Positions 34,633 to 34,732 of a DNA stretch of 64,000 nt are shown in pieces; the first letter of the stretch is position 1, and each line of letters opens with the position of its first letter. The stretch comes from Escherichia coli (lineage in GTDB: Bacteria; Pseudomonadota; Gammaproteobacteria; Enterobacterales; Enterobacteriaceae). Position numbers and translations under genes: made by a program. The notes below the pieces were generated by a model. The model was not told the DNA's origin and ran no database searches. It saw only the letters and a program-made list of their open reading frames with translations. Location: assembly GCF_022846255.1 (NCBI RefSeq), contig NZ_AP025682.1. One strand, given 5' to 3'.

Positions 34633-34671
34633 TACTGCTCCTGAACGGTTTACAGGAGTAAGTGTAGACGC

Positions 34672-34715
34672 CGAAAAAAGAAAACCGCCAGCGTTTCCAC
34701 CGGCGGTTTTCTTTA
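34672..34715 (-). terminator. Rho-independent terminator after ybfA (bidirectional form)
   Basis: aaaaccgccagcgtttccaccggcggtttt hairpin flanked by A/T runs. Confidence 0.55.
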
Positions 34716-34732
34716 AACGTCATGTTTGGCAA

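Follow-up and report, generated by a model that had tools for sequence, protein, structure and literature searches.

An unoccupied RhsC locus between ybfA and ybgA in an Escherichia coli chromosome

Genes and predicted signals at the ybfA-ybgA junction

The stretch of E. coli DNA analyzed here, which we call the window, comprises 64,000 nt of contig NZ_AP025682.1. In minus-strand order it carries ybfA (34939-34733), an intergenic gap (34732-34633), ybgA (34632-34123), and phr (34126-32708). The kdpFABC genes lie beyond ybfA in divergent orientation, and dtpD lies beyond phr in convergent orientation; apart from the Rhs element discussed below, the order kdpFABC, ybfA, ybgA, phr, dtpD is that of K-12. 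According to the open reading frame (ORF) list and the sequence, ybgA and ybfA are both encoded on the minus strand and the gap between them, 34633-34732, is exactly 100 bp, bounded by the ybfA stop codon (34733-34735) and the ybgA start codon (34632-34630, minus strand).

The gene assignments rest on the ORF list and on annotated relatives. ybfA (34733-34939, minus strand) encodes a 68-aa protein that probably belongs to the DUF2517/YbfA family, as judged from the annotation of an identical sequence: its product is identical to WP_000424788.1, which PGAP names "YbfA family protein," and Pfam PF10725 was found on the E. albertii orthologue. An NCBIfam search with the YbfA protein of the window matched no model. 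The 169-aa product of ybgA (34123-34632, minus strand; DUF1722/YbgA family) aligned in full length (residues 1 to 169) to the NCBIfam equivalog NF007549, scoring 342.1 bits versus a cutoff of 237, and the same gene is annotated in strain SCU-485. The phr gene (phrB; 32708-34126, minus strand), for deoxyribodipyrimidine photolyase, is annotated in CFT073 and in SCU-485, where the sequence is identical or nearly identical. The 4-nt overlap of phr with the ybgA stop codon points to a single ybgA-phr operon. Across the junction, 817 bp of the window are 100% identical to the finished genome of SCU-485, which is annotated there with ybgA, ybfA, and phrB.

Folding and conservation place a predicted intrinsic terminator hairpin of ybfA at 34677-34714 on the minus strand, starting 18 nt past the ybfA stop codon. 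The hairpin has a 17-bp stem and a GAAA loop (34694-34697). Its GC core (34685-34706) comprises 9 bp, two of which are G-U pairs, and A-U pairs extend the stem to the full 17 bp, so that the 3' arm runs into the U-tract UUUUCUUUUUU (34674-34684). The calculated energy is -30.4 kcal/mol on the minus strand (z score, -6.0) versus -19.6 kcal/mol on the plus strand; two G-U wobbles among its pairs account for the greater stability on the ybfA-sense strand. The whole 100-bp gap folds with -42.7 kcal/mol (z score of -6.2 versus shuffled sequence). Furthermore, the hairpin is kept in K-12, E. albertii, and Citrobacter, with stem differences that are mostly paired changes or G-U wobbles. A simple consensus promoter and terminator scan listed no terminator in the gap, because the predicted stem absorbs the U-tract. 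We infer that a strong Rho-independent terminator ends ybfA transcription, its activity being predicted from structure and conservation. Membership of the hairpin in a known RNA family was also considered and rejected, since an Rfam scan of 34400-35300 at a permissive E value returned only subthreshold chance matches.

The hairpin is followed by a conserved 12-nt box, CGTCTACACTTA (34659-34670, minus strand), which starts 14 nt after the GC core. Alignment of Escherichia alleles and outgroups revealed that the box is identical or nearly so in all Escherichia alleles, filled and empty, and in Citrobacter, Enterobacter, and Trabulsiella. Within it, TACACT (34661-34666) agrees with the -10 hexamer in 4 of its 6 bases, A2 and T6 among them. 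No sigma-70 site was listed by the consensus scan on the minus strand of the gap, and no convincing -35 hexamer was seen there. The box may form the core (-10 region) of a weak ybgA-phr promoter, a reading that draws on a single line of evidence, the conservation of the 12-mer across genera. The Shine-Dalgarno sequence of ybgA, AGGAG (34638-34642, minus strand), was read from the sequence 5 nt before the ATG and is kept as (A)AGGAG in Citrobacter, Enterobacter, and Trabulsiella. On this layout, ybfA transcription on the minus strand would stop at the hairpin and its U-tract; 14 nt further on, the box would act as the putative -10 element of a ybgA-phr promoter, followed by AGGAG and the ybgA start.

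Comparison with the RhsC locus of K-12

In K-12 MG1655, the interval from ybfA to ybgA measures 9,660 bp, versus 100 bp in the window, and contains rhsC, ybfB, ybfO, ybfC, ybfQ, ybfL, and ybfD. The original prediction for this DNA had placed an RhsC element with associated ybf genes at this position in K-12, which proved correct. When the two sequences were aligned across ybfA-ybgA, only the flanks aligned, and the short junction is absent from K-12. The prediction had further described ybfA and ybgA as directly adjacent with no Rhs element between them, and a hairpin of the terminator type inside the short gap; the first point agrees with the 100-bp gap and the lack of Rhs matches in the window, and the second with the folding results.

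The insertion could be delimited at nearly nucleotide resolution. According to the BLAST breakpoints, homology ends at K-12 position 729392 (window 34681), just past the hairpin and the T-run, and resumes at K-12 position 738963 (window 34670), 38 nt before the ybgA ATG; past the ybgA-proximal end of the element, the first homologous base belongs to the box CGTCTACACTTA. In K-12, this right end of the element contributes a TTCACA located 19 nt upstream of TACACT. The 9,570-bp K-12 RhsC element (729393-738962) thus stands where the window has approximately 8 to 10 nt, CTTTTTTCGG on the minus strand (34671-34680), and these were designated the ancestral spacer and insertion point on the basis of the BLAST breakpoints, the boundary sequences, and the outgroup spacer described below. 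The K-12 element occupies the same chromosomal site, between the ybfA terminator and the box upstream of ybgA, but in the window 9,570 bp are missing and the 8- to 10-nt ancestral spacer is in place. No direct repeat and no target-site duplication were found at the ends of the K-12 element. In addition, neither the 9,570-bp element (blastn) nor RhsC and YbfD (tblastn) matched anywhere in the whole 64-kb window. Taking the sequence, the ORF list, and the comparisons with K-12 and outgroups together, we annotated the 100-bp intergenic junction (34633-34732, minus strand) as an unoccupied RhsC site.

Occupancy of the site in complete E. coli genomes

The survey sample consisted of 5,426 complete E. 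coli genomes. The empty junction, scored as one continuous match through ybgA, the gap, and ybfA, was found in about 1,310 of them (24%), a count that may include a few genomes with inserts shorter than about 900 bp, as the search joins nearby pieces. The K-12-type left junction (ybfA-rhs) was present in 3,697 of the 5,426 genomes and the K-12-type right junction (H-repeat, ybfD, to ybgA) in 3,188. The best matches to the window, regardless of whether the site was filled or empty, showed at least 99% identity in 1,011 genomes, 95 to 99% in 200, and 90 to 95% in 4,213.

The empty site was confirmed in CFT073 and E2348/69 (phylogroup B2) and in SMS-3-5 and ST648 (phylogroup F), and these references share the 100-bp gap and the gene order of the window. 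It was also detected in N3 and Combat11I9, two strains with K-12-like flanks. The expectation that the empty junction would set this backbone apart from K-12 was borne out, since it occurs in only about 24% of the complete genomes, the B2 and F references among them.

Contents other than the Rhs element were also detected. A third allele, present in 171 genomes, is a 1.65-kb island of 33% G+C with three small immunity-type ORFs; it lies in the same spacer, and its ends are unrelated to those of the Rhs element. In the HYM1-type strains that carry it, the island replaces the same 8 to 10 nt. About 245 genomes have still other contents at the locus. In QA-1986 630, for example, the site holds ISEc1, a DcrB-like gene, a different RHS gene, and duplicated primase/XerC/SymE modules. 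Both the orphan immunity island of the HYM1 type and the QA-1986 630 modules likewise lie in the spacer bounded by the ybfA terminator and the CGTCTACAC box; their content is unrelated, whereas the window is empty. The site had been called a known integration hotspot, and several different elements indeed fill it in other strains, in line with the published data (Jackson et al. 2009, PMC2935791).

Two of these alleles have further peculiarities. The start of the HYM1 island (locus L006, 15242-15440) is a repeat of approximately 180 to 200 bp. Virtually all E. coli genomes contain this repeat, with a median of 7 sites each, and it could represent a dispersed intergenic repeat that is already known or a miniature transposable element (MITE). 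The QA-1986 630 locus (L004, 27690-39962) has two tandem modules at ybfA-ybgA, each comprising SymE toxin, HTH, DNA primase, and frameshifted XerC genes, and these modules lie downstream of ISEc1, the DcrB-like gene, and the gene for a 1,548-aa RHS protein of a non-RhsC type.

The RhsC site is Rhs locus 5 (kdpA-phr) of Jackson et al. 2009, in which its presence/absence and its absence from the B2-like group were published (PMC2935791). A clade III rhs was reported for Shigella flexneri at position 5, the same locus (PMC2935791), and a comparison with E. coli W also covers RhsC presence/absence (PMC3032704). The empty RhsC site is therefore already known, a real but ordinary present/absent locus. 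A literature search for ybfA together with ybgA returned only Tn7 and class 2 integron papers, in which these names denote unrelated ORFs. The classic survey of Rhs elements across the ECOR strain collection is reportedly that of Hill et al. 1995. For the strain studied here, the empty junction means that the RhsC toxin/immunity set is absent from ybfA-ybgA. It can also serve as a simple typing marker, which places the backbone with B2/F-type strains and not with K-12, A, B1, or E types.

Outgroup evidence for an inherited junction

A YbgA scan of one genome per species yielded 21 loci; it used exact-word peptide patterns and did not recover E. fergusonii and Salmonella. Among these loci, ybfA is directly upstream of ybgA in eight non-Escherichia Enterobacteriaceae, namely, six Citrobacter species, one Enterobacter, and Trabulsiella. 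A colinear junction with a homologous spacer was also found in two cryptic Escherichia lineages. The Citrobacter, Enterobacter, and Trabulsiella loci share the layout of the window: ybfA stop codon, GC-rich hairpin with T-tract, a spacer of 14 to 17 nt, (C/G)GTCTACACTTA, Shine-Dalgarno sequence, and ybgA-phr. They differ from it in their coding sequences, which are only about 65 to 85% identical at the protein level, and in Citrobacter the ybgA start codon is apparently further from the box than in the window.

The spacer nucleotides themselves are informative. In Citrobacter, the spacer TTTTTTTATGCGTCGA adjoins the box CGTCTACAC; in the window, TTTTCTTTTTTCGG adjoins CGTCTACAC; and in the cryptic Escherichia lineage SCPM-O-B-8794, TTTTTTTATGTACGC adjoins CGTCTAAAC. 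The spacer of E69 is TTTTTTTGTTTTCGC, and all of these spacers are visibly homologous. Filled alleles, in contrast, have unrelated bases directly before the box (CTCAA, ACCAT, CCCAA, and CCTAA). Since the outgroup spacer is homologous and the bases in the filled alleles are unrelated, the junction in the window is uninterrupted and inherited rather than a deletion scar. We conclude with considerable confidence that the 100-bp gap is an intact, never-interrupted ybfA-ybgA region, that is, an ordinary gene boundary at which the RhsC locus (Rhs locus 5) is unoccupied.

The same nucleotides argue against precise deletion, by which the 9.6-kb Rhs element would have been excised from a K-12-like allele to leave a clean junction. 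Nothing specific speaks for such an event, although deletions at Rhs loci are common, relics and pseudogenes have been reported (PMC2935791), and variant contents were seen here. The element has no flanking direct repeats that could mediate excision, and the 25 nt between the ybfA stop codon and the hairpin differ from the K-12/E. albertii haplotype and are more Citrobacter-like. Above all, the window keeps a spacer that is homologous to those of Citrobacter and cryptic Escherichia and absent from filled alleles, so that precise deletion is effectively refuted and we regard it as highly improbable.

Even less credible is an assembly artifact, in which the assembler would have collapsed or omitted an Rhs element rich in repeats. 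Rhs elements and H-repeats do break short-read assemblies, and the draft contigs of E. albertii, E1V33, and MOD1-EC7003 end within about 0.1 to 2.2 kb upstream of ybgA. However, the junction is 100% identical in the finished SCU-485 genome, and more than 1,000 complete genomes, filled or empty, match the window at 99% identity or more. Moreover, the junction is colinear with the outgroups, and a collapse would not yield the ancestral spacer.

Age of the Rhs insertion

An Rhs element at this site is not confined to E. coli. In E. albertii, ybfA is followed by a gene for an Rhs protein of 1,293 to 1,406 aa, immunity-type ORFs, and then ybgA. The left end is that of K-12, with GGCGGTTTTTTGT joined to ATCAGGAAGA and approximately 190 nt of rhs leader, and at the right end the last approximately 25 nt are homologous to K-12. 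Because the ends match those of K-12, the insertion is orthologous. The right end is also shared with K-12 by E. whittamii, Escherichia sp. E1V33, and MOD1-EC7003. These comparisons point to one Rhs insertion that is older than the split of these Escherichia species and older than E. coli. In line with this, Jackson et al. 2009 used E. albertii to infer an rhs at this position in the ancestral E. coli (PMC2935791), and on their view the empty state of the B2-like group is a lineage-level loss.

These data qualify the word "ancestral," which had been used in calling the junction uninterrupted and probably ancestral. For the allele the claim stands, given the outgroup layout and the retained spacer nucleotides. 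For the species it does not necessarily hold, since the Rhs insertion predates E. coli. The comparison also yields the nucleotide-level boundaries of RhsC, and the sharing with E. albertii refines, but does not change, the published picture of Rhs locus 5.

In a neighbor-joining tree of ybgA-phr, all E. coli alleles formed one clade (95% bootstrap), and trans-species polymorphism of the flank was ruled out by this result. Filled and empty states were interleaved across Escherichia in the tree, and therefore occupancy changed several times or stayed polymorphic. A return to the empty state that restores the ancestral spacer needs homologous exchange with a surviving empty allele. Judged from these sequences, the difference between empty and filled sites is an old presence/absence polymorphism and not a gain in the K-12 lineage. 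In the history that we propose, a single Rhs toxin element would have inserted between the U-tract and the box in an early Escherichia ancestor, and both alleles would have persisted and moved between lineages via homologous recombination in the flanks. The direct ancestors of the strain may have carried RhsC or may never have done so; the data are compatible with both.

Mosaic backbone around the junction

Sliding identity profiles delimited, approximately and at 500-bp resolution, a block of about 4 kb (31500-35500) that contains the 3' end of dtpD, phr, ybgA, the junction, and ybfA. This block is 99 to 100% identical to the B2 strains CFT073 and SCU-485, but along most of it the identity to K-12 is only 91 to 94%, while the remainder of the window shows about 97 to 98% identity to K-12. 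Unlike in the B2 references, the resemblance to B2 does not extend through the whole surrounding backbone. The kdp operon shows about 96 to 97% identity to all strains compared, and the closest match of the nag-pgm segment (47500-62500) is to the phylogroup F ST648 genomes (99.1%). Over the 24 kb from 22000 to 46000, no complete E. coli genome is more than 98.1% identical to the window. Given these mosaic identities and the lack of a close genome, the strain belongs to a mosaic lineage, as yet unsampled, on the B2/F side of the species, with a B2-type haplotype at this locus. In the window, the empty allele lies within this 4-kb haplotype block of the B2 type.

The mosaic raises the question of secondary loss: the lineage would once have held RhsC, and homologous recombination with DNA of a donor whose site was empty would have removed the element. 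The junction sequence would then still be of the ancestral type, and the history of the backbone would include a filled state. A block that is 99 to 100% B2-like, next to kdp at no more than about 97 to 98% and a nag-pgm segment nearest to ST648, is the signature expected of an imported segment, and both the rhs inferred for the ancestral E. coli (PMC2935791) and the interleaving of filled and empty states on the flank tree are in line with such a loss. However, the nearest relatives of the neighboring segments, ST648 and SMS-3-5 of phylogroup F, are empty with alleles of their own, so the replaced allele was probably empty too, and no trace of a former filled state was found within the window. 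We therefore consider secondary loss unlikely, though clearly less so than excision or misassembly, and retain the reading of a junction that was never interrupted.

The phr-ybgA region (32500-34700) is itself unusually variable, its alleles differing by 5 to 8% within E. coli, versus 2 to 3% in the flanking 60 kb. The window is 92.2% identical to K-12, 93.1% to N3, and about 93% to SMS-3-5 in phr-ybgA. Linkage to the Rhs state was rejected as the source of this divergence, since two empty alleles, those of the window and SMS-3-5, are only 92.6 to 94.4% identical in phr.

The 14-nt spacer that separates the terminator from the CGTCTACAC box harbors at least two inserts whose ends are unrelated, namely, the Rhs element and, in 171 genomes, the 1.65-kb orphan-immunity island. 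A speculative extension, to which we give little credence at present, is that this spacer is a recurrent, nucleotide-precise target for toxin/immunity cargo and that the empty, Rhs, and immunity-only alleles form an old polymorphism under selection. If so, the divergence of phr-ybgA within E. coli, 2 to 3 times that of the surrounding 60 kb, would result from repeated allelic exchange, and the locus would reflect either unrecognized site targeting or balancing selection on the presence versus absence of the Rhs toxin.

Other differences from K-12 in the window

Several further differences from K-12 were observed along the window. Between gltA and abrB, the K-12 fimbrial operon ybgD-ybgQ-ybgP-ybgO (about 4.8 kb) is replaced by 36 bp (25391-25428), and a 3' fragment of ybgO is left; in SMS-3-5, the annotation shows this partial fimbrial gene as well. 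Between sucD and cydA, about 2.2 kb with a gene for a tetratricopeptide-repeat protein (11157-13360) stand in place of K-12 mngR-mngA-mngB (about 5.9 kb), an arrangement present in about 1,104 of the 5,426 complete genomes. At approximately 47137-47167, K-12 ybfP and the pseudogenes ybfG and ybfI (about 1.66 kb) are absent and pgm adjoins potE; this spot varies further, as N3 and HYM1 do not have speF-potE. Finally, 19807-20076 gave two overlapping matches, offset by approximately 95 bp, to one K-12 sucB-sucC intergenic segment at approximately 76% identity, which suggests an expanded tandem or REP-type repeat.
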